Of a stretch of 39,123 bases of DNA, positions 169-24,666 are shown one piece after another. Source of the stretch: Candidatus Aenigmatarchaeota archaeon (lineage in GTDB: Archaea > Aenigmatarchaeota > Aenigmatarchaeia > Aenigmatarchaeales > Aenigmatarchaeaceae). The DNA is taken from the NCBI GenBank assembly GCA_018221065.1, contig JAAOXY010000082.1, positions 1 to 39,123 on the forward strand, written 5' to 3'. Position 1 is the first letter of the stretch, and every line of letters starts with the position of its first letter. The notes under the pieces are model-generated. The model did not search any database. It was not told where the DNA came from and was given only the letters and a program-made list of their open reading frames with translations. The position numbers and the translations under genes are program-made.

Positions 169-336
169 ATGGACGAAAAGGATTGTAGTGGGTGTAATTA
201 TAGAAAGATTGCCGTACAATGTTACAAGTCTATAGATAAAAACTGTCCATGTGCTATATGTATTGTTAAAACAATGTGCTCTGAATCATGTAATGTATGG
301 CATCAATGGTATATAAATAGAGAGAGGAGACCCTAA
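169..336 (+). CDS. small Cys-rich protein, CxGC..CPCxxCxVKxMC family (55 aa)
   Basis: Hand-translated ORF below track cutoff: ATG 169, TAA 334-336. MDEKDCSGCNYRKIAVQCYKSIDKNCPCAICIVKTMCSESCNVWHQWY.. Stop abuts the ATG of the next paralog. Confidence 0.6.
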   Translation: MDEKDCSGCNYRKIAVQCYKSIDKNCPCAICIVKTMCSESCNVWHQWYINRERRP

Positions 337-521
337 TGGATGAAAACTGTGATGGATGTATATGGAACTATGATGGATCACTGTGTGTAAAGTGGCAGGA
401 TGGAAACTGTCCATGTGGGAGATGTGTCGTTAAACCGATGTGCCAGGATCCATGTGACACATGGGGATTATGGTATACAATAGAACATGCAAAAAAACAA
501 AGAAAGGATGGGTGGATATAA
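336..521 (+). CDS. small Cys-rich protein, same family (61 aa)
   Basis: ORF track. MDENCDGC..GNCPCGRCVVKPMCQDPCDTWGLWY carries the full motif. Confidence 0.7.
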   Translation: MDENCDGCIWNYDGSLCVKWQDGNCPCGRCVVKPMCQDPCDTWGLWYTIEHAKKQRKDGWI

Positions 522-2829: not shown

Positions 2830-3024
2830 TTACAATATTTTTTTTCTTATTCTTTCCTTAATGATAGGTGTCCAATACTTATATTTTATAGGGCAATAAT
2901 GATTACCTTTACACATTATTTTAACAAGACACTTCCCGCATGGGCACCCTTCAGAAGTAATTCCAGATCTCATACAATATGAACTGGGATAATTTTGACT
3001 ACAACCAATACAACTATCTAACAT
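2830..3024 (-). CDS. small Cys-rich protein, CxGC..CPCxxCxVKxMC family (64 aa)
   Basis: ORF track. MLDSCIGC..EGCPCGKCLVKIMC. GGAGGTGTG RBS. Confidence 0.7.
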   Translation of the reverse strand: MLDSCIGCSQNYPSSYCMRSGITSEGCPCGKCLVKIMCKGNHYCPIKYKYWTPIIKERIRKKIL

Positions 3025-3057
3025 TTAAACACACCTCCAAAATTTTTTAAAAAAATT

Positions 3058-3076
3058 TTACCATATATAGGGATTT
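3058..3076 (-). promoter_or_regulatory. degenerate promoter-like core (CCATATATAGGGATT)
   Basis: Partial match to the cassette core, about 35 nt upstream of ATG 3024. Confidence 0.3.
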
Positions 3077-3077
3077 A

Positions 3078-3119
3078 CAGAGACATCTAACTGAGTGGTA
3101 GATGTCTCTGCTAACTATC
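3078..3119 (-). terminator. conserved terminator module (GAGACATC hairpin plus TGCTAACTAT)
   Basis: CAGAGACATC 3078-3087 pairs with GATGTCTCTG 3101-3110, followed by CTAACTAT. The same module recurs five or more times. Confidence 0.55.
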
Positions 3120-3126
3120 CCATATA

Positions 3127-3159
3127 TCTCCCGGTCGCGCTTTGCGGGGCCTGTCGAGA
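3127..3159. repeat. GC-rich hairpin element, copy 1
   Basis: TCTC-CCGGTCGCGCTTTGCGGGGCCTGTC-GAGA. Starts 12 nt below the stop of 3171..3410. Near-identical copies at 4884 and 6356. Confidence 0.6.
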
Positions 3160-3170
3160 ATGTCCCTTTA

Positions 3171-3410
3171 TTAATCGTTGATATCAAAAGCAGTGTTATA
3201 ACATTGAATGGCTTTGATCCAGTCTTCTCCGGCGTAGATAATATTGTTGAGATCATATGAATCATTGATATAAACAACATACACAATGACAGGAATGGAT
3301 GGCATCGCCGTTGCATGGAAATATTTTGTTCCTCTCTTATCTATATCTGATGCTATCACATGACTAAATGAAAAAGTTTGTAGATCTAATATGTCTAATG
3401 TGTGTTTCAT
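3171..3410 (-). CDS. hypothetical protein (79 aa), paralog of 9011..9220
   Basis: ORF track. GGAGGAGGG RBS. Shares HV[IL]AS and IY[AS]G.D..KA...YN with 9011..9220. Confidence 0.65.
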   Translation of the reverse strand: MKHTLDILDLQTFSFSHVIASDIDKRGTKYFHATAMPSIPVIVYVVYINDSYDLNNIIYAGEDWIKAIQCYNTAFDIND

Positions 3411-3440
3411 GATATCCCTCCTCCTATAGGATTATTTTTT

Positions 3441-3459
3441 GGAATAATAAGTTTATTCC
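3441..3459 (-). promoter_or_regulatory. 5' leader hairpin GGAATAA-N5-TTATTCC
   Basis: Inverted repeat between the promoter core and the RBS. About 40 nt of the leader is conserved with 5661-5701. Confidence 0.4.
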
Positions 3460-3467
3460 TTTTGTAT

Positions 3468-3490
3468 CATTAATTAATATATATAGAATT
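3468..3490 (-). promoter_or_regulatory. early promoter-like cassette core
   Basis: CATTAATTAATATATATAGAATT, 58 nt upstream of ATG 3410. Confidence 0.5.
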
Positions 3491-3541
3491 AGCAACCAAA
3501 AATAACGGTGCCGCCGGCAGCTAATTATCTCGGACAAAAAA

Positions 3542-3580
3542 AGAGACACCCAACAAATGTTAGATGTCTCTGCTAACTAA
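3542..3580 (-). terminator. conserved terminator module
   Basis: A-run, AGAGACAC ... GATGTCTCT, then GCTAACTA. The TAG stop of 3577..3867 lies inside CTAACTA. Confidence 0.5.
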
Positions 3581-3867
3581 GTGCTAAATGTGTCTATATC
3601 CTCTCTATCAAAATAGTAATCATCTCCATTATCTTCAATCCATGAAGGTATCATAGAATGATACCAATCTGACCACTCCTTACAACTACATCTAGGAATC
3701 ATTTTAACTATACAATTCACACAAATGCATTGCCCCTCATTATGCTCAACACATGACAAATATCTCTTTTCTTTTAGCGATGCATAGATTCTACAACCAT
3801 TACAGTGTTCATTATCTGTAGTAACTTTAATATAAAGATTATTCTTTTTTCTAATCATAGATAACAT
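3577..3867 (-). CDS. Cys-rich protein, extended family member (96 aa)
   Basis: ORF track. ..HCNGC..GQCICVNCIVKMIPRCSCKEWSDWY (CIC in place of CPC). Confidence 0.65.
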   Translation of the reverse strand: MLSMIRKKNNLYIKVTTDNEHCNGCRIYASLKEKRYLSCVEHNEGQCICVNCIVKMIPRCSCKEWSDWYHSMIPSWIEDNGDDYYFDREDIDTFST

Positions 3868-3875
3868 TTTTACTT

Positions 3876-4049
3876 TTACTCTCTTTCTTTTCTTTTCTCC
3901 TCTATTTTACCCTTAGTTTCGTCCAATAAGTTCTCTCCGTCTATTACGAGTTTTGAGACAAATTCAGAAAAGCCACCAGCTTTCTCACATTTTTGAATTG
4001 TTACAACTAACAATATGATAAATACTATGATAAGTATTGTTTTAAACAT
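3876..4049 (-). CDS. small membrane protein (57 aa)
   Basis: In-frame ATG 4049 with GGAGGATAATA RBS. The longer track start at 4085 would sit inside the terminator hairpin. Confidence 0.6.
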   Translation of the reverse strand: MFKTILIIVFIILLVVTIQKCEKAGGFSEFVSKLVIDGENLLDETKGKIEEKRKERE

Positions 4050-4071
4050 TATTATCCTCCTTTCTAAAAAA

Positions 4072-4114
4072 AGAGACAACCCCATAATGGCTAGATGTCT
4101 CTGCTCACTAACTG
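4072..4114 (-). terminator. conserved terminator module
   Basis: A-run, AGAGACA ... TGTCTCT, then GCTCACTAACTG. Directly below the stop of 4115..4438. Confidence 0.5.
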
Positions 4115-4438
4115 TTAACTATATTCCCTCATTGCCACCTGAATGGTCCAGGGTGTATCAACAGCAAACCCTGCCCTATCCAATTTCAAAACTCCTTCAG
4201 TCCCAAAATCATAGTGCCCGAAATGAGGTTCAAGTTTCGCTAACTTCATGTAGTTTTGACATGTACGAAGACTTATATCGAAGGTCTCTTTCACAAAAGT
4301 TTGCCAATTTCCATGACCTACATCCTCTTTCAATTCAAGAAGTTGTTCTCCAATTCTGACAGCACGATCTACATTTCCCTCATTTGAAGTCATCATACAA
4401 GTTTGAATCTCCCTGCTTATTTCAGGTGCTTTACGCAT
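4115..4438 (-). CDS. hypothetical protein, DUF3102-like (107 aa)
   Basis: ORF track. GHGNWQTFVKETFDISLRTCQNYMKLAKL resembles the GxGxW...S.RTA..YM.LA signature. This is recalled from memory, not searched. Confidence 0.65.
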   Translation of the reverse strand: MRKAPEISREIQTCMMTSNEGNVDRAVRIGEQLLELKEDVGHGNWQTFVKETFDISLRTCQNYMKLAKLEPHFGHYDFGTEGVLKLDRAGFAVDTPWTIQVAMREYS

Positions 4439-4475
4439 AGTAATACCTCCTTATAAAATAAGATTTATGTTTATT

Positions 4476-4498
4476 AGTAATTAATATATATAGGGATT
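4476..4498 (-). promoter_or_regulatory. early promoter-like cassette core
   Basis: AGTAATTAATATATATAGGGATT, 38 nt upstream of ATG 4438. Confidence 0.5.
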
Positions 4499-4549
4499 CC
4501 ATCTAAAAATAACGGTGCCACAAGGCATTTATTACATGGGTTAATCATA

Positions 4550-4624
4550 TTAGGTATCTTCTTCTTTATAAGCAAGATGAATACAATTATCTTCTCCTAT
4601 AAAGCATCCCTCACAGTTATCCAT
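4550..4624 (-). pseudogene. N-terminal fragment of the Cys-rich family (24 codons)
   Basis: MDNCEGCFIGEDNCIHLAYKEEDT*. Keeps the CxGC knuckle but lacks the CPC half. Its ATG overlaps the stop of 4617..4790. Confidence 0.35.
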
Positions 4625-4790
4625 AAGACTCACTCTCCCATTTATTCCATGGATCGCATCCCACTCGGCACATAGTTTTAACTAGACAGTAAGTACATGG
4701 GCAGTCTCCATTTGAATTTCGATCTCGAGTTTGTTTAAAACAACCAATAACACATCCTATACAGTTATCTATACAGTTATCTACACTCAT
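4617..4790 (-). CDS. small Cys-rich protein, family member (57 aa)
   Basis: Hand-translated: MSVDNCIDNCIGCVIGCFKQTRDRNSNGDCPCTYCLVKTMCRVGCDPWNKW.. 58 codons. GGAGGAG lies 9 nt upstream. Confidence 0.6.
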   Translation of the reverse strand: MSVDNCIDNCIGCVIGCFKQTRDRNSNGDCPCTYCLVKTMCRVGCDPWNKWESESYG

Positions 4791-4883
4791 GTTCCATGGC
4801 TCCTCCAGCTTATGATTATTTACCTCCTTTATTTAAAAAAAGAGACGGGGCTGGCGTGCTCACACCCCCCGATCTCTTTTCTC

Positions 4884-4919
4884 ATCCTCCGGTCGCGCTA
4901 TGCGGGGCCTGTCGAGGAT
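4884..4919. repeat. GC-rich hairpin element, copy 2
   Basis: ATCCTC-CGGTCGCGCTATGCGGGGCCTGTC-GAGGAT with a perfect 6-bp outer stem. Sits inside what looks like an interrupted terminator module (AAAAAAAGAGAC ... CTCTGCTAACTATC). Confidence 0.6.
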
Positions 4920-4943
4920 ACCTCTGCTAACTATCATAATGTA

Positions 4944-5651
4944 TTACCTCTTTGTTAATTTTGTCTCAGAACAATTGCTGATAACTCTTGACCCGAAACC
5001 GATACCCCAACAATTAGCCGATTTGATTATAGTATGGCCAGTGGTATGAATAGGGGGTTTGATTGATTTTACATCTTTTCTTATGCCATATACTAACGAT
5101 TCAGAAGGATCTGGATCTTCTTTGTTTATTCTGTAGAAATTATATATAGAAGTCCCCGTATATAATCCCCATTCAAGATTGGCGTTTCCACCATTATCAT
5201 CTATCATCCACAGATCACCATCATTGCTACTTGGAGGACTGCTGATAATGTAAAGTCCAGACTGAGCCATTGTAGCTAAAGTATAACCTCTTGTGAAAGA
5301 ACTTTTTCTTGTAGATTCGAAGCTTGTCAATGTAGTGTTGGCTATAGCTTGTAACAGGAAACCTCCACGGCCTATCATTATTCTATCTGATTGACTGAGG
5401 GCATCATAGTTGGTTACAACTTCGTGCATTCCTTGCTGGTCTATATCACCATCCACCAATTCTGCTGCCACATAATGACCTGCTATATGGGTTGCTGCAC
5501 TAGCGGCTGCCCCTATCAGCATCTCTCCAACATCTTCTGCTTTGACTGCTTCATTCACATCAACACCAAGAATATAAAACTTCATTGATTTTGATGATGC
5601 ACACCCACTAAATCCGAGACATAATAAAATGACACAAATAATATATTTCAT
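4944..5651 (-). CDS. putative lipoprotein (235 aa)
   Basis: ORF track. MKYIICVILLCLGFSGC signal peptide with lipobox. GGAGGGG RBS. Confidence 0.8.
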   Translation of the reverse strand: MKYIICVILLCLGFSGCASSKSMKFYILGVDVNEAVKAEDVGEMLIGAAASAATHIAGHYVAAELVDGDIDQQGMHEVVTNYDALSQSDRIMIGRGGFLLQAIANTTLTSFESTRKSSFTRGYTLATMAQSGLYIISSPPSSNDGDLWMIDDNGGNANLEWGLYTGTSIYNFYRINKEDPDPSESLVYGIRKDVKSIKPPIHTTGHTIIKSANCWGIGFGSRVISNCSETKLTKR

Positions 5652-5678
5652 AGTAACCCCTCCTATAGGATTGTTTTG

Positions 5679-5697
5679 GGAATAATAAGATTATTCC
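5679..5697 (-). promoter_or_regulatory. leader or attenuator hairpin GGAATAA-N5-TTATTCC, copy 2
   Basis: Same inverted repeat and flanks as 3441-3459. Overlaps the stop of 5691..5843. Confidence 0.4.
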
Positions 5698-5843
5698 TTT
5701 TCTATTGTTACTTTTACATTGTCGCCTTTCTGGAAACCATTCAAAGTGAACAAATGAACTTCTACTACAAGATAGGTATCTTCTGGCAGATCCCATACTT
5801 TCTCCTGTACTATCGATGTAGTTTCATATTTTTTCTTGGTCAT
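5691..5843 (-). CDS. hypothetical protein (50 aa)
   Basis: Hand-translated: MTKKKYETTSIVQEKVWDLPEDTYLVVEVHLFTLNGFQKGDNVKVTIEKE. GGAGGAATGAATT precedes the ATG. Confidence 0.45.
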   Translation of the reverse strand: MTKKKYETTSIVQEKVWDLPEDTYLVVEVHLFTLNGFQKGDNVKVTIEKE

Positions 5844-6103
5844 AATTCATTCCTCCTTTCTAATATCCTCTCGGCTAATAATGACGCTCTTCATATTTAT
5901 TAAAGATCTATATCTCTATAGATTTTTATGCAAACCCAGTTACCAATCTATCAAACTCGCACGATTTAAACTTCAATTAATATGAAAAGCTGTTCCAATT
6001 ATTATTATCCTCTTTTTTCCTTTGAGTCTGCCTCCTCCGGAAGCCTTACCAGGTAATCAAGAAGTAATAATCAAAACAGTCATTATTAGCAGACAGAATA
6101 TTA

Positions 6104-6146
6104 GTAGAGACATCCAACTGAGTGTTAGATGTCTCTACTAACTATC
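6104..6146 (-). terminator. conserved terminator module
   Basis: GTAGAGACATC 6104-6114 pairs with GATGTCTCTAC 6128-6138, followed by TAACTATC. Confidence 0.55.
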
Positions 6147-6152
6147 ATCCAC

Positions 6153-6339
6153 CTCAATATTTTCCTTCGCATATGTAATTGTCCCATTCAGGACAGCAGT
6201 CATTATTTGCCTTTTGATCAGGATTACATCTCATTACTTTCATCAAACAAATATTACATGGTCATGATTCATCATTAAAAGTATAACATATTAAATCCTC
6301 TATACTATAAAGAGGACACCCCTCACAATTCTTAGACAT
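6153..6339 (-). pseudogene. disrupted Cys-rich family member (in-frame TGA plus 1-nt frameshift)
   Basis: MSKNCEGCPLYSIEDLICYTFNDES-TGA(6262-6264)-PCNICLM, then a +1 shift into KVMRCNPDQKANNDCCPEWDNYICEGKY*. Span is 187 nt (3n+1). Confidence 0.55.
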
Positions 6340-6355
6340 AAAATAATCTCCTTTT

Positions 6356-6391
6356 ATCCCCCGATCGCGCTTTGCGGGGCCTGGTGGGGAT
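6356..6391. repeat. GC-rich hairpin element, copy 3
   Basis: ATCCCC-CGATCGCGCTTTGCGGGGCCTGGT-GGGGAT with a perfect 6-bp outer stem. Directly below the stop at 6393. Confidence 0.6.
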
Positions 6392-6392
6392 T

Positions 6393-6548
6393 TTATCCAC
6401 CAACGGGTTTTCTGTGGGATCTGGGCGGACTGTTGTATTGATAAGAAACGTACCGTTTTTTACTTTTCTTGTATTTGTGGATAACGAAAGGACTGATAAC
6501 AATGATTGTAGCGATGGTTGCATAAAGTGAAATCAAGAATAGATCCAT
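6393..6548 (-). CDS. small membrane protein (51 aa)
   Basis: Hand-translated codon by codon: MDLFLISLYATIATIIVISPFVIHKYKKSKKRY.. GGAGGAGATAAAAA RBS. Promoter core 47 nt upstream. Confidence 0.45.
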   Translation of the reverse strand: MDLFLISLYATIATIIVISPFVIHKYKKSKKRYVSYQYNSPPRSHRKPVGG

Positions 6549-6594
6549 TTTTTATCTCCTCCTTAAAGTTAAATAAGTTTAATAATTTATTATT

Positions 6595-6616
6595 AGTAAT
6601 TAATATATATAGAATT
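6595..6616 (-). promoter_or_regulatory. early promoter-like cassette core
   Basis: AGTAATTAATATATATAGAATT. Confidence 0.5.
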
Positions 6617-6658
6617 AACATCTAAAAATAACGGTGCCGCCGGCAGCTTGCTATCCCG

Positions 6659-6943
6659 TTAAATATCTTGATCTTTCACATCTCCTTTTTTTAAGCAATG
6701 TTTTTGGACACTATAAGGGGGATCCAACTTAAATTCTGCTCTAATACTATTCACAACACTTCTTACTCTGTTAGCTCCAGAATCTTTAGACCCCTTTGGG
6801 CGCTTACTATTTTTAGTAAAGTAATCACATATTATAGAACAATGAACCTGGCTTAATATTGGAGCAACACCTCTATTGTTACTATGTACCATAGCATTAC
6901 ATATAGCAAATGTTATACAGTCTTTACATGGAATTTTACTCAT
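6659..6943 (-). CDS. Cys-containing protein, PCKxCIxxAIC subfamily (94 aa)
   Basis: ORF track. MSKIPCKDCITFAICNA.. parallels 8597..8806. Confidence 0.7.
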   Translation of the reverse strand: MSKIPCKDCITFAICNAMVHSNNRGVAPILSQVHCSIICDYFTKNSKRPKGSKDSGANRVRSVVNSIRAEFKLDPPYSVQKHCLKKGDVKDQDI

Positions 6944-7077
6944 TTGCTTTCTTCCTCTTTATCGTCTTTGTATTTATCGATTGCATCTTTAGCTATTTTC
7001 TGAGCAGTCTTCCATAATCCAACTTCAAGGGAAACTATTTTATTAAGAGCATTTAATAACTCACCAATCGAAGCCAT
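6940..7077 (-). CDS. hypothetical helical protein (45 aa)
   Basis: Hand-translated, 46 codons. ATGA stop/start overlap with 6659..6943. Its ATG overlaps the end of 7061..7267. Confidence 0.4.
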   Translation of the reverse strand: MASIGELLNALNKIVSLEVGLWKTAQKIAKDAIDKYKDDKEEESK

Positions 7078-7267
7078 TGTATCTTTCCTTTCTGCTTTTA
7101 TTTTGTTTTTTCTTAATATAATAATCTTTAATAGTTAAGATGATTGCTATAATTCCACATAAGATAGCCCATGCCACTAGAAAATCAAAGTCATATTTTG
7201 GTTTAGATATTATTCTTAGGAATACAGCAACAACAAACATACTATAGAAAGTTACTTTAATAGACAT
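7061..7267 (-). CDS. membrane protein (68 aa)
   Basis: ORF track. AAGGAGGATAAATTA RBS. Two hydrophobic segments. Confidence 0.65.
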   Translation of the reverse strand: MSIKVTFYSMFVVAVFLRIISKPKYDFDFLVAWAILCGIIAIILTIKDYYIKKKQNKSRKERYNGFDW

Positions 7268-7291
7268 TAATTTATCCTCCTTTTAAAAAAA

Positions 7292-7321
7292 AGAGACATC
7301 CCTTAACTGGGAGATGTCTCT
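7292..7321 (-). terminator. terminator hairpin (AGAGACATC / GATGTCTCT)
   Basis: A-run followed by a 9-bp stem. Lies between 7338..7874 and 7061..7267. Confidence 0.55.
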
Positions 7322-7337
7322 CTATAAATCAAAGATC

Positions 7338-7874
7338 CTATTTATGGATTTTGATCTCGCCGACCTTTTCATCATCATTGACAATCATAACAGTTATTCC
7401 TGTTAATGTCTCATCATTGAATCTCATGTATATCAAGCTGACTTCCTCAACAATTCTATTATTGCTGATCCCTACTCCAGTGTTAAATCCAAAGAATAAA
7501 CCTCTTTGGGTGCGTGTAGTTTGGGTTCCGGCTGGTGTCCCACAGTAATACTTCACTCTATCTATGGGATCGCCTTTTTTAATTTCCTTCCCATCACATT
7601 TTAGGACATTGTCTGATATATCAATTTTGCCCCTATGCCTTTCTGCGGCATCAGATTCAGAGACTCCAACAGCAATCATAAGAGCAACACCAATGAAGAA
7701 AAATATTACTGCTATACAAAACCATCGAATCATCAATCTTTTTAATTGTATTACAATGGGATCCTTCAAACCATATCCTTTTCTTAATCTGTTCTCCCGA
7801 TCTTTTTCAAATGGACTTGCTTTTAGTAATGCAACAATTGCTAGAATCATTGCTAAAGCACCTAGAATAATCAT
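7338..7874 (-). CDS. membrane-anchored protein (178 aa)
   Basis: ORF track. GGAGGTGTCATT RBS. N-terminal hydrophobic segments. Confidence 0.75.
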   Translation of the reverse strand: MIILGALAMILAIVALLKASPFEKDRENRLRKGYGLKDPIVIQLKRLMIRWFCIAVIFFFIGVALMIAVGVSESDAAERHRGKIDISDNVLKCDGKEIKKGDPIDRVKYYCGTPAGTQTTRTQRGLFFGFNTGVGISNNRIVEEVSLIYMRFNDETLTGITVMIVNDDEKVGEIKIHK

Positions 7875-7903
7875 AATGACACCTCCTTTTAATTTAAATT
7901 AGG

Positions 7904-7973
7904 TACCCCGCAGAGGGGTCGAACCTCCTGTGCCGCTTCGTAAAAGAACGGCTGCTCCTAACAGCAACGGGGT
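7904..7973 (-). tRNA. tRNA-like element with a non-canonical anticodon arm
   Basis: Minus-strand read: a 7-bp acceptor stem (ACCCCGT/GCGGGGT), U8, a D-loop GG, a T arm GGAGG-TTCGACC-CCTCT, and a discriminator A followed by CC. The anticodon arm has either a C.A mismatch with loop UUUUACG, or a perfect 5-bp stem CCGUU/AGCGG with a 9-nt loop CUUUUACGA. Confidence 0.4.
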
Positions 7974-7980
7974 ATGATAA

Positions 7981-8520
7981 CTATCCCAATCTACTATCAT
8001 GATCAAACATTTTAACAAATTGTTTTGCCATACCTTTTACTTGGCCTTGTAGTATAATTCCCCAAGTGTCTCTTATTTTTTTTACTGAAAGAATCTCAAG
8101 TTTCTCAAATTCCATTTCCCCCACTTCGACATACATTCGGGCAAGAATGTGACATATTGAATCTCCCTCTGAAACTGATCCGATGATATTCAAACTCTTG
8201 AAATCAACTCCTCCTCCTGCTTCAGAAGCCATCTCTACTGAGTTACGTAAGAAATTTGCGAAGAAGTCTATATCAGACATTTCTTTTATATCTTCTATGG
8301 TTTTTTCACTCCCAAAGAGCCCTTCAAAAAGGCCTGCCGAAAACTCTTCAGGGAATTCTACAGAAGATGCTTCTAATGGGGATGTTATCATAGATTTAAA
8401 CTCTTTCAATGCTTCTGGAGTATACAGTTTAGCAACCTCGTTCCATTCCTTCTTCTGTAGCTTTATAAAATACAATTTGGCCAAGAATTCTTCCGATTTA
8501 ACTACATTGTCTTTTACCAT
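7981..8520 (-). CDS. hypothetical acidic protein (179 aa)
   Basis: ORF track. GGAGGAGATATTACA RBS. Promoter core 40 nt upstream. Confidence 0.75.
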   Translation of the reverse strand: MVKDNVVKSEEFLAKLYFIKLQKKEWNEVAKLYTPEALKEFKSMITSPLEASSVEFPEEFSAGLFEGLFGSEKTIEDIKEMSDIDFFANFLRNSVEMASEAGGGVDFKSLNIIGSVSEGDSICHILARMYVEVGEMEFEKLEILSVKKIRDTWGIILQGQVKGMAKQFVKMFDHDSRLG

Positions 8521-8559
8521 TGTAATATCTCCTCCTGATAAAATAAGATTTTGTTTATT

Positions 8560-8581
8560 AGTAATTAATATATATAGAATA
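8560..8581 (-). promoter_or_regulatory. early promoter-like cassette core
   Basis: AGTAATTAATATATATAGAATA. Confidence 0.5.
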
Positions 8582-8596
8582 AGTCGCTAAAAATAA

Positions 8597-8806
8597 CTAT
8601 CCGACCCGACCATAAACTGGTGGCAAACCAAAGAATCTTCGAGCATTATCAATTGTATCCAAACTATTAGAGTCTATATATTCAAGCAATAGAGAACAAT
8701 CCTTAGACCGTGCTAGATTGGTCACATCCTCAAAAGGGAAAGTACCGATTAAACTTTTACATATAGCTAATACTATACAATTTTTACATGGGACATCAGT
8801 CATCAT
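8597..8806 (-). CDS. Cys-containing protein, PCKxCIxxAIC subfamily (69 aa)
   Basis: ORF track. MMTDVPCKNCIVLAICKS.. Confidence 0.7.
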   Translation of the reverse strand: MMTDVPCKNCIVLAICKSLIGTFPFEDVTNLARSKDCSLLLEYIDSNSLDTIDNARRFFGLPPVYGRVG

Positions 8807-8972
8807 AAGTATTTTTCTTTCTATGACTAAGAAGTCTCATAGATAAAAATGGATGACCGATTTGATCTCTACACCATTTATGCATCGCATCCTCATCTTC
8901 GAACTCCTTCTCCCAAGGCTTCCCGTCAGGAGTTTCCTCATTATATGTTTGGAACGTTCCTATAATTGTCAT
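8796..8972 (-). CDS. hypothetical protein (58 aa)
   Basis: Hand-translated, 59 codons: MTIIGTFQTYNEETPDGKPWEKEFEDEDAMHKWCRDQIGHPF.. Overlaps the start of 8597..8806. Confidence 0.45.
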   Translation of the reverse strand: MTIIGTFQTYNEETPDGKPWEKEFEDEDAMHKWCRDQIGHPFLSMRLLSHRKKNTYDD

Positions 8973-9010
8973 AGATTTAATCCTTTCCTTTTATTAGTTT
9001 CATTAGATTT

Positions 9011-9220
9011 TTAAATACTATTATATTCATGGACAGCTTTCGCTATATCACTTCCAGAATATATAACAGATCCAGCCCTGCATACATTGAATAACATAGA
9101 TTTTATAATAGGGTTTACAGTCATTATAAGATCTTTGTGTTCAGTTCTTCCCCTGATTGAAGCTAAAACATGTTCAATTTTAAAATCCTTTAACTCTTCA
9201 ATACTTATTTGATGTGTCAT
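9011..9220 (-). CDS. hypothetical protein (69 aa), paralog of 3171..3410
   Basis: ORF track. GGAAGGAGG RBS. Confidence 0.65.
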   Translation of the reverse strand: MTHQISIEELKDFKIEHVLASIRGRTEHKDLIMTVNPIIKSMLFNVCRAGSVIYSGSDIAKAVHEYNSI

Positions 9221-9256
9221 TTAATTCTACCTCCTTCCTGAAAAATCTGGCGGGCT

Positions 9257-9293
9257 CACAGTTCCAGAAATTACTTGCATTCCTGGAACTGTG
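9257..9293 (-). other. perfect 11-bp hairpin inside a GC-richer intergenic segment
   Basis: CACAGTTCCAG (9257-9267) pairs with CTGGAACTGTG (9283-9293), 15-nt loop. Enclosed by TCTGGC (9246-9251) and GCCAGA (9362-9367). Confidence 0.5.
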
Positions 9294-9373
9294 ACTTTAC
9301 CTCACCGCGGGATTAGTATAGGAGCTGTCTTTCATCCTTGCGAGAATCAGACGGGCAACCTGCCAGAATTTAT

Positions 9374-9754
9374 TTATCCTATTTTAATATGAAAATCAAT
9401 CTCGATGAATCTCTTGATGAATCTCTTTGCTCTCTTGAATTGGTCTCGGTGTTTTCTTTCTCTACATAACCAGCGGCGTTTTCTTTCTTGACAATAATCT
9501 TCACGCCTTATATGCCGAAAATCGTAATGCCTACATTTACAACATATTCGCTCATCTACATATGCAAGAGAGCAAGTAACTCCATGATAAGGACACTTTC
9601 CCCGAAGCCCATGGTCACTATGTAGATCAGGTTTATCCCAATCACATGCATAGAATTTACAATTACAACAAACTCGCTCATTACCCATACCTTTAAGATC
9701 ACAACCAAAACATCCACCATGATACGCAGCTCCACCACGATAATATCTTCTCAT
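9374..9754 (-). CDS. Cys/His-rich basic protein with internal ER[VI]CCxCxxY repeat (126 aa)
   Basis: ORF track. GGAGGTGAAATT RBS. NERVCCNCKFY and DERICCKCRHY. Confidence 0.7.
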   Translation of the reverse strand: MRRYYRGGAAYHGGCFGCDLKGMGNERVCCNCKFYACDWDKPDLHSDHGLRGKCPYHGVTCSLAYVDERICCKCRHYDFRHIRREDYCQERKRRWLCRERKHRDQFKRAKRFIKRFIEIDFHIKIG

Positions 9755-9797
9755 AATTTCACCTCCTTGAAAAATTTAAGTTTAATAATTATTTATT

Positions 9798-9819
9798 AAT
9801 AATTAATATATATAGAATT
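9798..9819 (-). promoter_or_regulatory. early promoter-like cassette core
   Basis: AATAATTAATATATATAGAATT, 44 nt upstream of ATG 9754. Confidence 0.5.
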
Positions 9820-9826
9820 AGAATCC

Positions 9827-9860
9827 AAAAAAAGATCAGCTAGCTACCCTGATCTTTTTT
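9827..9860. terminator. bidirectional terminator
   Basis: A-run, AGATCAG ... CTGATCT, T-run. Confidence 0.6.
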
Positions 9861-9890
9861 GTATAGGTTCTGTACCTAAGCTCTATAGTT

Positions 9891-10124
9891 CTAGCTTTCT
9901 ATCCGTCTCCGGCATTCAGTTGCGATGGTTTCCACATTCTGAAAGGCATGATACCAACCTGTTACCATAATTGCAAGACTCACAATTCCAAATACCCAAT
10001 AGAACCAAGGCATTGAACCCATCACTTCATAATAATGAAAGATGTTCCATGATAACCAGACACCAATTGAAAACACTATCCAAAACCCAAACGCTTCTTT
10101 CACATTTCTTCTTAAGTCTTTCAT
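9891..10124 (-). CDS. membrane protein (77 aa)
   Basis: ORF track. GGAGG RBS. Two hydrophobic segments. Confidence 0.7.
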   Translation of the reverse strand: MKDLRRNVKEAFGFWIVFSIGVWLSWNIFHYYEVMGSMPWFYWVFGIVSLAIMVTGWYHAFQNVETIATECRRRIES

Positions 10125-10167
10125 AGTGTAACCTCCTATTAAAATAAGTGTTGTATAACTCCTTTAT

Positions 10168-10191
10168 CATTCATTAATATATATAGTAATT
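10168..10191 (-). promoter_or_regulatory. early promoter-like cassette core
   Basis: CATTCATTAATATATATAGTAATT, 44 nt upstream of ATG 10124. Confidence 0.5.
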
Positions 10192-10216
10192 ATTTCTTTC
10201 TTGGGTAAAATGGGTA

Positions 10217-10403
10217 TCAAGGATGCTTTTCTATAATTTCATCAAAATATTTCTGTCTTATTTGACATTCAAAAAATTTTTTACACATAGCTTTAACTAC
10301 ACAAATACCACATAGGACATTTTCCATTATTCAATCCTTCTAAATCACACCCTTTTAAAATCCAGAAATAGTACCCACAACCAGTACAATGTTTATTTTC
10401 CAT
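10217..10403 (-). pseudogene. frameshifted Cys-rich family member
   Basis: MENKHCTGCGYYFWILKGCDLEGLNNGKCP, then one extra base (TGT CCT A TGT), then CGICVVKAMCKKFFECQIRQKYFDEIIEKHP*. Frame 0 stops at 10293-10295. Span is 187 nt (3n+1). Confidence 0.5.
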
Positions 10404-10413
10404 CTTCCTCCTT

Positions 10414-10455
10414 AAAAAAAAGAGATCAGGCCATAAGGACTCCAATCTCTTTTTA
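10414..10455 (-). terminator. intrinsic terminator
   Basis: A-run, AGAGAT ... ATCTCT, T-run. Confidence 0.5.
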
Positions 10456-10537
10456 TCGCAACCTCAAGAAAGGTCCGTTGACTTGGGACCTGCCACAAGC
10501 CAGTTCTGCCACCAAATCAGAAGTATGCGAATTTCAT

Positions 10538-10708
10538 TTAATGAAATGTGAAATTTTCAAATTCCATTCCCAAAAGTTCAAGAGGCATATCTTCATCTAT
10601 GAGCGTTTCAGCTAGGCGTTTATTCTCTAACCATTCTTTTATCACTGGACACATATCACGGCATTCATGTCTACCGGGACATATAGCACAAGGACTATTT
10701 GGATCCAT
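10538..10708 (-). CDS. small Cys-containing protein (56 aa), C-half-like motif PCAIC..C..MC
   Basis: Hand-translated, 57 codons. GGAGGTAATTCGA RBS. Promoter core 40 nt upstream. Preferred over the antisense track ORF 10548..10730. Confidence 0.55.
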   Translation of the reverse strand: MDPNSPCAICPGRHECRDMCPVIKEWLENKRLAETLIDEDMPLELLGMEFENFTFH

Positions 10709-10747
10709 TCGAATTACCTCCTTAAAATAATTAAGATTTTGTTTATT

Positions 10748-10769
10748 AGAAATTAATATATATAGAATT
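10748..10769 (-). promoter_or_regulatory. early promoter-like cassette core
   Basis: AGAAATTAATATATATAGAATT. Confidence 0.5.
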
Positions 10770-10775
10770 AAGAAC

Positions 10776-10943
10776 TTAACTTAATTTTTTAGATTGGTTT
10801 TTATACCACTCATCCCAACTTTCACATCCATAATCACACATCATTTTAACAAGACAATTCGTACATGGACATGAACCATCTTGAATTTTATAACACCTTA
10901 TAGCTATTGTTTTATATGAGCACCCATCACATTTATTCCTCAT
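10776..10943 (-). CDS. small Cys-rich protein, family member (55 aa)
   Basis: Hand-translated: MRNKCDGCSYKTIAIRCYKIQDGSCPCTNCLVKMMCDYGCESWDEWY.. Confidence 0.6.
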   Translation of the reverse strand: MRNKCDGCSYKTIAIRCYKIQDGSCPCTNCLVKMMCDYGCESWDEWYKNQSKKLS

Positions 10944-11112
10944 TATCTATATCCCACTTATCATGATCATCACATATATTGTAGCACATCGGTTTAACGA
11001 CACATATCCCACATGGACAGTTTCCATCATCATTATAATAATTAGAACATACATTGCCTTTAGCGTAACACCCATCGCAATAATTATGATTTATTTCTTT
11101 ATAAGGATTCAT
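10933..11112 (-). CDS. small Cys-rich protein, family member (59 aa)
   Basis: Hand-translated codon by codon: MNPYKEINHNYCDGCYAKGNVCSNYYNDDGNCPCGICVVKPMCYNICDDHDKW.. Confidence 0.6.
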   Translation of the reverse strand: MNPYKEINHNYCDGCYAKGNVCSNYYNDDGNCPCGICVVKPMCYNICDDHDKWDIDNEE

Positions 11113-11295
11113 ATTTAAGATCCTCTTTAAATAAACGCCATTCCCTCCATTTATAGCACCAATCCTGACACATCATTTTTACAATGCATTTGGAGCATGG
11201 ACATGAACCTTCTAGATTAAATTCTCTTACAGAATAACAAGCTCCAATATGGGAGTCACCGGACAACCTTGACAGTTTGGACGATCACCACCCAT
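11099..11295 (-). pseudogene. frameshifted Cys-rich family member
   Basis: MGGDRPNCQGC in frame 0 (stop at 11227-11229). The rest, GDSHIGACYSVREFNLEGSCPCSKCIVKMMCQDWCYKWREW.., is in another frame. Span is 197 nt (3n+2). Confidence 0.5.
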
Positions 11296-11554
11296 AAGAG
11301 TTGGAAAGAAAAGCGGGCTCTACTACAGCCTTTTTTTCTTTATATGTTGGGAGTTTATTCCATGCTTCATATGCTTCTTTGTCACCTCCATGATAAAACA
11401 TATAACTTGCATCACACACGACTTCAATGACATGCTCTTTCGGCATTACTGGAGGTTGCCCATTATCCTCTAAGGCCCTTAAAGAATCACCGCCAATATA
11501 ATCCCATGTTCTTAAAGCCATATTTTGTATTCTTGTTTTCATTCTCTCATCCAT
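11285..11554 (-). CDS. hypothetical protein (89 aa)
   Basis: ORF track. Overlapping-gene operon. Confidence 0.75.
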   Translation of the reverse strand: MDERMKTRIQNMALRTWDYIGGDSLRALEDNGQPPVMPKEHVIEVVCDASYMFYHGGDKEAYEAWNKLPTYKEKKAVVEPAFLSNSYGW

Positions 11555-11804
11555 CTTTTTCCTCCATATTCAAATGTTTTTTAATCTCATCTAAATCATC
11601 TTGAATGTGTATGAGTCTTTCTGTTTTATTAGATTGTTTCCTATGTTGAAGTATATCATCTAAAACTTCTGCTTCTTTTCTACCTGAGACAAATTCCCAG
11701 ATGTAATGACCATATTCAGAAATTAGATGAACAATAACCAAAATTGATAGTATGGCATCCCAATATTTCCATGCCATTAGTGATTGCATTAGATCAAGCA
11801 TCAT
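11547..11804 (-). CDS. hypothetical protein with N-terminal TM (85 aa)
   Basis: ORF track. Confidence 0.7.
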   Translation of the reverse strand: MMLDLMQSLMAWKYWDAILSILVIVHLISEYGHYIWEFVSGRKEAEVLDDILQHRKQSNKTERLIHIQDDLDEIKKHLNMEEKDG

Positions 11805-12114
11805 CTATCTCCTTTTCAACTGTTGGTCTTTCCCCATATGCGTCTAGATCTTTTGGAGCGTCAAATAATAAACTCATTTCTAATGCGCCTCTAATTTGGT
11901 TAAGAAAAAGCGTTTTACACATTGTCCATTCATAGTTTGCAACGCATCTTCCATTTCCGTTTTTAGACCACTCTCCTTCTTTAATTCCATTCTCCCGCAT
12001 AATATTATAAAACTTTTCTTTTAAAGTTTTTATCATTCGTTTGTTTACGGGCATTTTAATAATGTCTTCTGCTACTTTCCTCATCTTTAAATTTCGTTTA
12101 TCATTTTGATTCAT
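11794..12114 (-). CDS. hypothetical protein (106 aa)
   Basis: ORF track. ATGA overlap with the upstream frameshifted ORF. Confidence 0.75.
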   Translation of the reverse strand: MNQNDKRNLKMRKVAEDIIKMPVNKRMIKTLKEKFYNIMRENGIKEGEWSKNGNGRCVANYEWTMCKTLFLNQIRGALEMSLLFDAPKDLDAYGERPTVEKEIDDA

Positions 12115-12309
12115 TTATTATCTCCCTTATATATTCCTTGGGGGTATTGTCTGTTATACCAATCGCTCCATTTGTCACATACCTTTTCATCGTTACACAT
12201 TGGTTTAACCACACATGAAGTACATGGGCAGCCCCCCATTAATATTAATATCATTTTCTGCCTCGCATACCATTGATCCACATCCTATACAATGCCCATT
12301 TTTATTCAT
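12111..12309 (-). pseudogene. frameshifted or split Cys-rich family member
   Basis: MNKNGHCIGCGSMVCEAENDININGG, then a +1 shift at a G6 run (plus-strand CCCCCC 12232-12237), then CPCTSCVVKPMCNDEKVCDKWSDWY..*. An internal ATG at 12239 could start a 42-aa C-half ORF. Span is 199 nt (3n+1). Confidence 0.5.
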
Positions 12310-12314
12310 AGTCT

Positions 12315-12506
12315 CTAAACTCCTTCTATAAATATTTTTTGGTGAACCCATTCCTCTTCCCTATCACAAGTACAATAATGAGGCATCATTTTAACTATAC
12401 ATGTCATGCATGGGCAGCTTTCATCGCTGTTTAATATTGTGCTACATGGCAAAGAGTAGCAGTTTGGGTAATGGCTGCACCCTTTACAATATGGATTTTT
12501 ACTCAT
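12315..12506 (-). CDS. small Cys-rich protein, family member (63 aa)
   Basis: In-frame ATG 12506 (MSKNPYCKGC..ESCPCMTCIVKMMPHYCTC). Overlaps the ligase stop by 8 nt. The longer track start at 12581 lies inside the ligase gene. Confidence 0.65.
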   Translation of the reverse strand: MSKNPYCKGCSHYPNCYSLPCSTILNSDESCPCMTCIVKMMPHYCTCDREEEWVHQKIFIEGV

Positions 12507-13677
12507 AATCTCTAACTGCTTCAGCTTCAGCTGGGACTCCAACTGGTTGAAGTGGAACTCCATCTTCAGATAGTTCTGCATACCTGACAGTTAACATTGA
12601 ACCAATATCATTTGGAAGATTTAGAAGCATTGCTTTACGATCTTCGACTGTGCCTCTTGGCCTGGCATCAAACTCTATTCCTGTTTTGCTAATGCATCTA
12701 TATATGATACATCCCTCATCAGTTCCGGTACCTTCTTTTCCACCAACTATTTCAAACTCATCATCTTGATATGCTTTTACTTTTTCAAGATCATCTGAGT
12801 TATATTGAAATAGATATATTCCGTTTACATTCTTTAACATGGCTCCTTCAAAACCATTTTGAACACAATCATCGTGATATGCTTTTGCTTCAGCGTAGTT
12901 ATGAACTATCTTGCTTGGGGAAAATTTAATAGGACATATCATATCAGAATGATTTAACTCTAGTTTTGTTACTTCTTTCATAATCCATTTTATTCTTTCT
13001 TCAAATGTAGGTCCAATCCAAGCAATATCATATAACCAGTATTCTAAAAGGTGTTGATCTGGTTTTATTTTTTTGGTATATGATCCAATCTTTTGAAGAC
13101 TCCATCCATGAACATATAATTCTCCATGTACTGGAGCTGGAGCCTTAAGTTCTTTCAACCACGAATCAAGATGGGCAAGAGTGTTAAATAAATGACCACC
13201 TCTTGAATGATGAATCATTTGAAAATGTTCTACATCGATTTCAGCCAAATTACAAATGCCATTGAACTTCGGTTGAATATATGCGGGATATACAATCTTT
13301 CCTTTACCAACTCCCTTTGCGAGCTGAGGTAGCATGAGTCTTGGTTCATACTTAGGACCAACATTAGCAGAGCCATTTTTATTAACCTGGGGGTCGAGTA
13401 AGCCCAAATCAAACTCATAGTTGGCAGCTCTCTTAACTGTCAGCTGTGATTCAATTTGAGATTTAGCTTGCTCAAATGGAGTTGTTTCATTTGCTTTTCC
13501 AATATTCTTTCCCTTCTTTATTAGCTTTGGCATTGGTCGAATCTTCTGACCAACATAACCAGACTCAACAATAATAGATGCCGTATGGTTATCATGTTCT
13601 ACAACTTTCGCTTGCCATTGTTTCAATTTCCCTGTTCTACTTACTCCGAATAGTGCTGGAAGTTCTACGTTTTGCAT
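12499..13677 (-). CDS. lig: ATP-dependent DNA ligase (392 aa)
   Basis: ORF track. Nucleotidyltransferase motifs: PKFNG (KxDG-type motif I), EGAMLK (motif IV), LEKVK (motif V). Confidence 0.88.
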   Translation of the reverse strand: MQNVELPALFGVSRTGKLKQWQAKVVEHDNHTASIIVESGYVGQKIRPMPKLIKKGKNIGKANETTPFEQAKSQIESQLTVKRAANYEFDLGLLDPQVNKNGSANVGPKYEPRLMLPQLAKGVGKGKIVYPAYIQPKFNGICNLAEIDVEHFQMIHHSRGGHLFNTLAHLDSWLKELKAPAPVHGELYVHGWSLQKIGSYTKKIKPDQHLLEYWLYDIAWIGPTFEERIKWIMKEVTKLELNHSDMICPIKFSPSKIVHNYAEAKAYHDDCVQNGFEGAMLKNVNGIYLFQYNSDDLEKVKAYQDDEFEIVGGKEGTGTDEGCIIYRCISKTGIEFDARPRGTVEDRKAMLLNLPNDIGSMLTVRYAELSEDGVPLQPVGVPAEAEAVRDYE

Positions 13678-13877
13678 TATATTTCTTTTCCTTTCATTTC
13701 TTTATATCTTTGTCTCCATGCATAATTCCAGTATATCCATTTTGTGCAATCATCTTCTTTATCATGTTTACACATTACTTTAACAATGCAATTATGACAC
13801 GGGCATGAACCATTAATTCCATAGCATACATGAAAGCATGTTTTCTCTACTGAACACCCTCTACAGTTTGTCATCAT
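13677..13877 (-). CDS. small Cys-rich protein, family member (66 aa)
   Basis: ORF track. MMTNCRGC..GSCPCHNCIVKVMC. Stop overlaps the ligase ATG. Confidence 0.75.
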   Translation of the reverse strand: MMTNCRGCSVEKTCFHVCYGINGSCPCHNCIVKVMCKHDKEDDCTKWIYWNYAWRQRYKEMKGKEI

Positions 13878-13881
13878 TTTA

Positions 13882-14070
13882 TTAGTCTTTTAGGTATTCA
13901 TATTCAAGATCATCAGGCTGTTTTCCATATTGCATCTTCATTGTTTCTATTTTACTCTCTGCTGCTTTGGGCAGAGCGAATCCTCCCACAATGCCTTTAC
14001 CATGACAATTCCACCTTGGATCTAATTTAGATTCTAACCACCATGATCCTTCTTTCATACTCATATACAT
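13882..14070 (-). CDS. hypothetical protein (62 aa)
   Basis: ORF track. GGAGA upstream. The in-frame ATG at 14064 has better spacing and may be the true start. Confidence 0.6.
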   Translation of the reverse strand: MYMSMKEGSWWLESKLDPRWNCHGKGIVGGFALPKAAESKIETMKMQYGKQPDDLEYEYLKD

Positions 14071-14152: not shown

Positions 14153-14157
14153 CTTGA

Positions 14158-24663: not shown

Positions 24664-24666
24664 ATT

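Follow-up and report, generated by a model that had tools for sequence, protein, structure and literature searches.

A 36-nt GC-rich palindromic element in three intercistronic spacers of a probable T4-like phage contig

Introduction

Small mobile palindromes are known from AT-rich genomes, such as miniature inverted-repeat transposable elements (MITEs) and the mitochondrial 'GC clusters'. Integron attC sites have an inverse core, RYYYAAC, and a core, GTTRRRY, at their ends, and go with an integron integrase nearby. Here we describe a GC-rich, palindromic element of 36 nt, present in three copies in one complete contig of 39,123 bp (GenBank JAAOXY010000082.1), and compare it with the closest described systems. 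Below, "the window" means this whole contig.

In bacterial chromosomes the repetitive extragenic palindromic (REP) elements are imperfect palindromes of 20-40 bp, located outside genes, for the most part shortly after a coding region where the neighbouring genes are co-directional. Their GC content exceeds that of the DNA around them, and they are plausibly transcribed and regarded as miniature mobile DNA (PMC3733652). In T4-type phages the promoter early stem-loop (PeSL) motifs combine a terminator stem-loop with an early promoter and are conserved among related phages. They are repeated in the intergenic DNA of the hyperplastic early regions, where they flank the insertions, deletions and replacements by which close relatives differ (PMC4122927, PMC2839356), and PeSL-like terminator-promoter modules drive the shuffling of cassettes in these phages (PMC4122927). 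Finally, solitary CRISPR repeat units (SRUs), which act as RNA anti-CRISPRs (Racr), resemble a CRISPR repeat in sequence and structure, usually one of the host's system, and often lie immediately downstream of a promoter (PMC10651486).

The window has a GC content of 34.5% and is probably an AT-rich environmental phage of the T4-like kind. Its gene content is phage-like, with an ATP-dependent DNA ligase, a collagen-like tail fibre, an HNH-NUMOD3 endonuclease and a glycan-modification cluster, and for one gene of a relative (locus L273) a match to Gp23, the T4 capsid family, is on record. Small early-type genes occupy the - strand at about 1.4-17.2 kb, and larger genes follow on the + strand beyond 17.7 kb.

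Results

Three copies of the element

The invariant 19-nt core of the element, TCGCGCTWTGCGGGGCCTG, occurs exactly three times in the window, always on the + strand (at 3135, 4893 and 6365), and there are still only three occurrences when three mismatches are allowed. In 100 dinucleotide shuffles no match was found: the chance expectation is 0, against three observed. A repeat finder grouped the same three copies as one family (D16). At full length they are:

3126-3161, + strand: copy 1, ATCTCCCGGTCGCGCTTTGCGGGGCCTGTCGAGAAT; 59 bits with model R1
4884-4919, + strand: copy 2, ATCCTCCGGTCGCGCTATGCGGGGCCTGTCGAGGAT; perfect 6-bp outer stem; 61 bits
6356-6391, + strand: copy 3, ATCCCCCGATCGCGCTTTGCGGGGCCTGGTGGGGAT; outer stem ATCCCC/GGGGAT; 60 bits

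An initial annotation, made from the sequence alone, had described three GC-rich copies in an AT-rich background, and this holds. The composition of the copies is foreign to the contig: their GC is 64-69% against 34.5% for the window, they are three of its ten GC-rich islands, and they are the most CpG-dense 36-mers of a CpG-depleted sequence. The coordinates and consensus first given were also correct; in the common register copy 1 is slightly longer (3126-3161 instead of 3127-3159).

The borders of the element are sharp, with no flanking sequence shared among the copies, and pairwise identity over the 36 nt is 30-32/36. A separate Logan assembly (L139) covers 4861-6624 with one single-nucleotide difference, and copies 2 and 3 are identical there.

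All units are imperfect palindromes of one architecture: the 6-bp outer stem leads through an asymmetric internal loop to an inner stem, which contains a conserved mismatch and closes on a 3-nt loop. The outer arms (6 bp, ATCCYC/GRGGAT) differ among the copies. They are ATCCTC/GAGGAT in copy 2 and ATCCCC/GGGGAT in copy 3, as annotated before; the 4-bp shifted stem reported for copy 1 is TCTC/GAGA, and alternatively 5/6 pairs, including two G-U, can form there in the common register. The core of about 23 nt forms an imperfect hairpin of its own: it contains a conserved G.G mismatch as well as a T-G wobble, and its triloop is T-rich. Variation is lower in the inner 21 columns than in the outer 15 (2/21 vs 6/15 variable columns, Fisher P = 0.046).

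A number of other identities were tried and rejected. The units are not tRNA or att-core fragments: T-arm and acceptor features are absent, and ARAGORN gives one unrelated tRNA only. They are not a restriction-site cluster either; CGCG and GCGC are depleted genome-wide, as part of the general CpG depletion, and are merely contained in the element. A Chi-like site (CCTGGTGG) is present in copy 3 only, and of a LexA site there is a single half. An N4-type hairpin promoter was dismissed on the position of copy 2, which directly precedes a terminator, and an RNase III site on the helix, which has neither the length nor the strength required. The coding potential of the unit is trivial, amounting to no more than the conserved bases translated in frame. 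A fourth, weak match of the model at 628-665 is an ordinary hairpin that is also conserved in the closest relative, and hence no member.

Absence from the closest relative and from databases

The closest relative found, L137, shares 72-91% nucleotide identity with the window across much of the early region and lacks the element at all three sites. Its homology breaks exactly at each copy. At the site of copy 1 a different upstream gene leads straight into GATAGTTAGCAGAGAC in L137, and at the site of copy 2 the last ~58 codons of the upstream gene, the element, a GC-rich terminator and the next gene are without counterpart. Fuzzy and covariance-model searches found no copy in L137 or the other relatives (~0.3 Mb), apart from two candidates in L268 and L273 that are described below. 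More distant relatives of the 235-aa gene upstream of copy 2 have no element, and no analogous GC-rich repeat families were found in the relatives. Protein look-ups of the neighbouring genes gave no strain variants with or without the element; the only identical contig is L139.

Outside the relatives, no copy was found in 0.93 Mb of unrelated AT-rich viral loci. The exact core has no match in IMG/VR, and a scan for the GC-rich terminator beside copy 2 gave none either. An exact scan of JGI/ENA metagenomes gave 106 matches, all on contigs of 46-77% GC and many of them in one recurring coding context; none is AT-rich or phage-like, and they are judged to be chance or coding matches. The same judgement of chance applies to a 25-nt match in L100/L077, which falls in an unremarkable GC-rich region. 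An exact scan of GTDB (one genome for each of 185,579 species) with a 22-nt core found no array and only three single actinobacterial matches. With blastn, neither the region against INPHARED nor the unit against INPHARED and PLSDB gave anything below E = 6. Rfam has no match at gathering thresholds in the whole window, and none overlapping the copies at E <= 10. Nor is there a known family of repeats or terminators to which the element corresponds.

A different short GC-rich repeat, CTCGCY-N5-8-CACAYGGCGGGA, is present in the relatives at 7757-7904 in L266, 7629-7757 in L269/L270 and 21-60 in L271. It occurs in 2-4 copies within ~150 nt of intergenic DNA near a switch of gene direction, and such a cluster may be an origin or a regulatory array.

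Neighbouring genes and terminator modules

Each copy follows a stop codon on the - strand, at a distance of 12 nt (copy 1), 25 nt (copy 2) and 2 nt (copy 3), exactly as first reported. The genes on the two sides are:

3171..3410, - strand: 79-aa ORFan gene upstream of copy 1; its only member among 5.8 billion proteins is the window's own
2830..3024, - strand: small Cys-rich gene (CPCxxCxVKxMC) downstream of copy 1, family D1
4944..5651, - strand: 235-aa gene upstream of copy 2; the last ~58 aa are without counterpart in relatives
4617..4790, - strand: small Cys-rich gene downstream of copy 2
6393..6548, - strand: gene of a 51-aa membrane protein upstream of copy 3; in L137 the stop of the orthologue is overlapped by the following gene, leaving no spacer
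6154..6339, - strand: small Cys-rich gene downstream of copy 3, with an in-frame TGA at 6262-6264

Copy 3 is located between the stop codon and the next ribosome-binding site, 16 nt from the ATG at 6339.

Two hairpin modules recur in the early region. One is an 87-nt terminator-plus-promoter-like module (family D4) at 3446-3532, 4453-4539, 6572-6658, 8537-8623, 9775-9861 and other places, with the + strand motif TAATTAATATATATAG. It is composed of a short GC hairpin with a T-run (GCTGCCGGCGGCACCGTTATTTTT), followed by a promoter-like motif, CTATATATATTAATTA, and a 5'-UTR hairpin. A 16-mer of this module is a specific marker of the clade, with 5 copies in L137 and 0 in 137 unrelated loci. The other module, GATAGTTAGCAGAG-ACATCT...AGATGTCTCT, is found with or without a T-run, and its leader, GATAGTTAGCAGAG, has three exact copies in the window (3106-3119, 4922-4935 and 6133-6146). 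Around the element these modules are arranged as follows:

3080..3119, - strand: standard hairpin module, leader plus AGAGACATCT...AGATGTCTCT, without T-run, immediately downstream of copy 1; the L137 homology starts here
4922..4935, - strand: leader GATAGTTAGCAGAG, severed from its hairpin by copy 2; the other two leaders run straight into the AGAGACATCT stem
4835..4876, - strand: intrinsic terminator of unusually high GC content, GAGAUCGGGGGGUGUGAGCACGCCAGCCCCGUCUC plus U7; read in the sense direction, it lies 7 nt beyond copy 2
6107..6146, - strand: standard hairpin module ~210 nt downstream of copy 3, past the next gene

Copy 1 ends 6 nt short of the leader at 3106-3119, and copy 2 sits 2 nt past the leader at 4922-4935, between leader and terminator stem. 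Deleting ~45-48 nt at copy 2, flanked by AGAG/GAG microhomology, restores the junction of two uninterrupted paralogous modules. Copy 2 had been proposed to lie inside the loop of a terminator. An interrupted module is indeed present there, but the hairpin at 4842-4876 with its T-run is a terminator complete by itself, so "inside the loop" is one of two defensible readings, the other being "between leader and stem". The related proposal of a small inserted element is in better agreement with the data: the borders are sharp and the flanks unrelated, L137 lacks the element at the three junctions, copy 2 splits a conserved module, and the probable members in L268 and L273 are placed in a terminator loop.

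Further sites of the AGAGACATCT...AGATGTCTCT hairpin are 3543-3581, 4073-4112 and 7293-7320, in addition to 3080-3119 and 6107-6146, and the motif (GA)TAGTTAGCA precedes them; in L137 the stop codon of the upstream gene falls within the leader (GAT AGT TAG). The terminator at 4842-4876 and copy 3 have in common the 9-mer CCCCCGATC and a GGGGC(C)TGG(C/T)G-like stretch, arranged as swapped halves of the element. This resemblance may be a coincidence or the remnant of a second, rearranged unit.

The Cys-rich family (CPCxxCxVKxMC) has at least 11 small proteins at 2830-15544 (-) and more at 235-480 (+), with many paralogues in L137 and no Pfam or PHROG match. The TGA at 6262-6264 replaces the first Cys of the CPCxxC motif of the paralogues (..ES*PCNIC..), and the same base is found in L139. 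To judge from the sequence, the gene could be a pseudogene, or the codon a recoding site or a selenocysteine.

Folding of the two strands

On the - strand, which is the sense of the mRNA, 35/36 cells are pairable if G-U is allowed, and one pair shows a double change. The initial annotation had stressed this compensatory change in the stem. The double change is there, but it is statistically meaningless because there are only three copies; 324/500 shuffles reach it. Folds of single copies are no better than those of shuffles (z -1.2 to +0.8), and the predicted sense-strand RNA hairpins are weak, at -9 to -13 kcal/mol (z +0.4 to +0.8). When folded in the native context, the common hairpin has an appreciable probability for copy 2 only. 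Copy 1 folds in a shifted register, and in copy 3 the left arm (AUCCCCACC) pairs with the last codons of the upstream gene (GGUGGAU), out-competing the common hairpin. No U-run directly follows the sense-strand hairpin of any copy: they continue with AUAUGG, GAGAAAAG and AAAAGGAG, and a terminator scan flags none of them.

The + strand, antisense to the genes, folds better than the - strand because the T-G wobble stands where the - strand has a C.A mismatch. For copies 1 and 2 its apical hairpin, GGTC-G-CGC-TTT-GCG-G-GGCC, is predicted at a probability close to 1, whatever the context and whether RNA or DNA is folded. A role as a stability or processing hairpin in the mRNAs of the window, one of those first suggested, is not supported by this comparison: the well-folding strand is the antisense one and the sense versions are weak. 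Since the sense folds are weak and the + strand folds better, the robust feature of the window copies, according to the predictions, is the conserved sequence of an imperfect dyad and not a stable sense-RNA structure.

Within 6386-6404 (-), copy 3 has a left arm, ATCCCCACC, that is complementary to GGTGGATAA, the final codons and stop of the upstream gene. The predicted pairing replaces the outer stem of the element itself, and the three differences of copy 3 from copies 1 and 2 are what creates this complementarity.

Probable members in two relatives

Two of the more distant relatives have one GC-rich nested hairpin each in an intercistronic spacer:

L268, 12018-12057: candidate member, GGAAGGTCAC-GTCGGTCTTTGGCGGGCTTG-GTGACCTTCC
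L273, 13041-13079: candidate member, the stem of L268 around GTTGGTCTTGGCGGGCTTA, then a T-run

The ligases of L268 and L273 are ~70% identical to that of the window and 80% to each other. Judged by sequence and pairing, the two hairpins are probably related to the element. Their 36-nt units align with the + strand of the window without gaps at 20/36 identical positions, compared with 12/36 in the opposite orientation, and random hairpins of identical architecture reach 20/36 with P ~0.005-0.01. The cores match at 14/19 positions, and 4/5 of the differences fall in two base pairs that are still paired. Common to all are the G.G mismatch, the T-G wobble, the T-rich loop and a 3-4-nt bulge on the 3' side. 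When L268 is included in the model, the copy of L273 is recovered with 29 bits (E = 1.5e-5). Within this putative wider family two core types can be distinguished, GGTCGCGCTTTGCGGGGCC and GTCGGTCTTTGGCGGGC.

In L273 the outer stem of the candidate recurs in two modules with short AT-rich loops, that is, "empty" ones, and the GC-rich core would therefore occupy a terminator loop. In both relatives the well-folding strand is the sense strand, in contrast to the window, where it is antisense. Folding energies of -26 to -27 kcal/mol (z -3.3 to -4.1) make both hairpins very stable; since a U-run follows it, the stem-loop of L273 is predicted to be a terminator.

Other features of the window

Beyond the early region around the element, the following genes were recognised:

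16721-17194, - strand: type IV pilin-like protein with N-methylation motif
17720-18322, + strand: SET-domain protein
20460-26605, + strand: glycan genes, namely an 881-aa glycosyltransferase with PIG-L deacetylase, hexapeptide transferase and radical-SAM/SPASM genes
26662-28648, + strand: collagen-repeat tail fibre with a CBM5/12 domain, then a tandem pair of 158-aa genes (83% identical)
33257-33823, + strand: free-standing HNH-NUMOD3 endonuclease

No transposase or integrase was found among the ~45 open reading frames (ORFs) of the window that were scanned. The ligase at 12499-13677 (-) has 248 metagenome relatives at E <= 1e-60, with 60-79% identity among the 120 listed (proteins P0009-P0128). 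Contigs carrying these relatives are up to 118 kb long, and a few were deposited within metagenome-assembled genomes labelled Heimdallarchaeaceae or 'Candidatus Glassbacteria'. The ligase relatives thus delineate a large uncultured phage clade.

ARAGORN calls a suppressor-type tRNA at 7902-7973 (-); with its UUA anticodon it would read UAA. No tRNA is called in the orthologous region of L137, and the late genes of the window are ordinary ORFs in the standard code. Across the window the observed/expected ratio of CpG is 0.53; ACGT and CGCG are at 0.20 and 0.23 of expectation, and CTAG and GTAC at about half. This depletion may reflect restriction or methylation pressure from the host.

Discussion

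The reading that we favour, with a probability of about 40%, is that the element is a palindromic cassette, sporadic within the lineage, which spread through a shuffled early region by insertion or short-homology recombination and which would act as a terminator or stabiliser only when it is sense-oriented. A small GC-rich cassette of nested hairpins, with a 6-bp outer stem around a core of ~23 nt and belonging to a sporadic family of this phage clade, would have been gained in three intercistronic spacers after the split from the nearest known relative. Insertion, or else recombination through short homology or template switching, would have placed it at or beside conserved terminator hairpin modules. 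Short-homology or template-switch events are common at quasi-palindromes, where they can invert the loop between inverted arms and create "compensatory" changes without selection. A core facing the sense direction would strengthen a terminator or an mRNA-end hairpin; the window copies, being inverted relative to transcription, would contribute only weak mRNA structure. It is the weakly folding complement that the window mRNA carries. Most likely, therefore, the copies are passengers, near-neutral or selfish, or have their effect as DNA, rather than being tuned RNA regulators. How the element spread, that these copies have no role in the sense RNA, and that the L268 and L273 hairpins are related to it, are inferences; observed directly are the three copies, their sharp borders and foreign composition, their absence from relatives, the interrupted module, and the asymmetry of orientation and fold.

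Several points weigh against this reading. A target-site duplication consistent across the three copies was not found, the AGAG/GAG microhomology being limited to copy 2, and no mobilising enzyme was identified in the window, which is one 39-kb contig of a genome possibly >100 kb long. The position of the element at synteny breakpoints is weak evidence because breakpoints are frequent here, with about 12 in 6 kb of the mosaic early region. All three copies have one orientation, which hints at function and not at neutral passengers. The lower variation of the inner columns, together with the shared orientation and the Cys-rich neighbours, hints in the same direction: the next gene after all three copies is a member of the Cys-rich family (11-plus copies), for which the chance is ~2-4%.

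The wider family adds doubts of its own. It has five known members in three genomes only. A model built from the window copies alone gives the L268 hairpin 13 bits (E = 0.45), and sequence-only matches with up to 5 mismatches (<= 5) are expected ~0.4 times in the relatives. Further, the L268 member was found by a structure-aware model, so its compensated stem changes are partly a matter of ascertainment and not independent evidence. The initial annotation would have been undermined by a lack of both further copies and covariation: there are no close copies anywhere, and what exists are the two probable distant members, with stem changes that are compensated and, as just said, not independent.

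Alternatively, the element might be a cis-element of the sense RNA: a hairpin in the early polycistronic mRNA whose apical 23 nt are bound by a phage or host factor, either for antitermination of the nut/boxB type or as an endonuclease or stability determinant located before terminator modules. All three copies lie the same way 2-25 nt past stop codons, the gene ahead of copies 1 and 3 is the first one past a promoter-like module, and copy 2 is 7 nt ahead of a strong terminator; the core is better conserved than the arms, whose substitutions keep 35/36 cells paired on the - strand (with G-U wobbles and one double change). Still, we hold such a role to be quite unlikely. The sense folds are no better than shuffles, pairings with the flanks out-compete copies 1 and 3, and even at E <= 10 Rfam has no match. 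The element is also absent from the closest relative despite shared promoters and terminators, other transcription units with terminators have no copy, and in the probable relatives L268 and L273 the orientation relative to the genes is the opposite one. As for a lambda-type nut site, reading the sequence shows no boxA-like CGCTCTT beside any copy, and no N-like protein is recognisable. The flip of orientation between genomes would be tolerated by a recognition site in duplex DNA, for which orientation would not matter. Here a dimeric protein (a regulator, a homing-type nuclease or another DNA enzyme) would bind or cut the dyad GGNCNCGC-N3-GCGNGNCC with its outer arms. The core is invariant at asymmetric positions and better conserved than the arms, and these compositional outliers are kept intact despite a CpG-depleted genome; the window encodes a homing-type HNH-NUMOD3 endonuclease (33257-33823), and its relatives have GIY-YIG and NUMOD3 genes. 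However, invariance of the core may simply reflect recent copying, and stem changes that preserve pairing are not expected if the sequence is what is read. With no overlap with the promoter-like modules, all >= 200 nt away, and no candidate binding protein specific to the genomes that carry the element, we regard a site of this kind as rather improbable.

The breaks in synteny can be explained in another way, by a recombination module that offers short homology or structure for the exchange of gene cassettes, as PeSLs or attC sites do, and this would account for the differing flanks. Each copy is placed exactly at a synteny break with L137, the three copies are direct repeats at gene 3' ends, and the mosaic early region consists of cassettes with repeated terminator-promoter and hairpin modules at their borders; PeSLs provide a precedent (PMC4122927). 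But exchange requires that the module is present in the recombining population, and it is missing from all close relatives sampled, while ~12 breakpoints in 6 kb make a coincidence likely. There is no promoter part. The units contain neither of the attC motifs RYYYAAC and GTTRRRY when their sequence is read, and ORF scans show no integrase. We give this explanation a low probability. Far less probable is mimicry of a CRISPR repeat, where the unit as an SRU or RNA anti-CRISPR would imitate a host repeat and titrate Cas proteins. Its length of 36 nt, partial palindrome, intergenic position and several solitary phage copies do fit the description of SRUs (PMC10651486). Yet the 22-nt core is found in no array in 185,579 species genomes, only in three single actinobacterial matches, there is no significant similarity to a few canonical I-C, I-E and I-F repeats (P > 0.05), and the copies are not immediately downstream of a promoter.

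Returning to the cassette that we favour, a bolder and unlikely extension would make it a member of an undescribed class: ultra-small (~20-36 nt) GC-rich palindromic phage cassettes that home into or beside terminator-hairpin loops, in either orientation, by means of a structure-specific enzyme reading the single-stranded DNA hairpin (G.G mismatch, T-G wobble). Such cassettes would remodel terminators and drive cassette shuffling in a widespread clade of T4-like sediment phages.

The element matters mainly for correct annotation, as it is not to be called a terminator or a regulatory RNA. Within a large uncultured clade it is also useful for marking a very recent change that sets apart phages otherwise close to each other. 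Should the family prove real and mobile, it would represent rare REP- or MITE-like selfish palindromes within lytic-type phage genomes, and would suggest a concrete route by which terminator modules are rebuilt in hyperplastic regions.

Comparison with known systems

Like the Racr units, the copies are solitary, repeat-sized, partly palindromic intergenic units in a phage (PMC10651486). Their distance to a promoter is different: the upstream promoter-like motif is ~200-310 nt away with a gene between for copies 1 and 3, and ~1.7 kb away for copy 2. The resemblance to PeSLs (PMC4122927) belongs to the 87-nt D4 modules of the window, which are common to L137; the 36-nt element, in contrast, is absent from L137, far more GC-rich and shorter, and has no promoter-like motif. 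Because the promoter part is lacking, it is no PeSL.

The likeness to the intercistronic hairpins and terminators of T4-type phages is found in the probable members: in L268 and L273 they are very stable stem-loops after a stop codon, and in L273 a U-run follows. In the window, by contrast, the well-folding strand is antisense, the sense strand has no U-run and the fold energies equal those of shuffles.

With REP elements the element shares that it is an extragenic imperfect palindrome, of 36 nt and 2-25 nt past stop codons. It differs in that the GTAG/CGTC tag or its complement is absent from the element and its ends, that there are three copies in 39 kb instead of tens to hundreds, and that these are phage-borne and not chromosomal. 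Further, no match to a REP-associated tyrosine transposase (RAYT/Y1) is seen among the ~45 ORFs of the window, a partial genome, and the 185,579 species genomes hold no specific sequence match. With no GTAG/CGTC tag, so low a copy number in 39 kb and no RAYT match among the ORFs scanned, the element does not belong to the tagged REP families.

The resemblance to MITEs and GC clusters lies in a GC-rich palindrome with 6-bp terminal inverted repeats in AT-rich intergenic DNA, patchy among relatives and found in either orientation. It differs from MITEs in being below their typical size at 36 nt, in having no consistent target-site duplication and no cognate transposase, and in arms that vary among the copies, unlike terminal inverted repeats recognised by a transposase.

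By analogy, then, the element would work most like an extragenic palindrome of the REP or MITE type; in the relatives, the parallel is with T4-type phages and their stable intercistronic hairpins and terminators. Its kind is already known, from REP- and MITE-like repeats and from T4 intercistronic hairpins, and the element of the window is a new variant of it.

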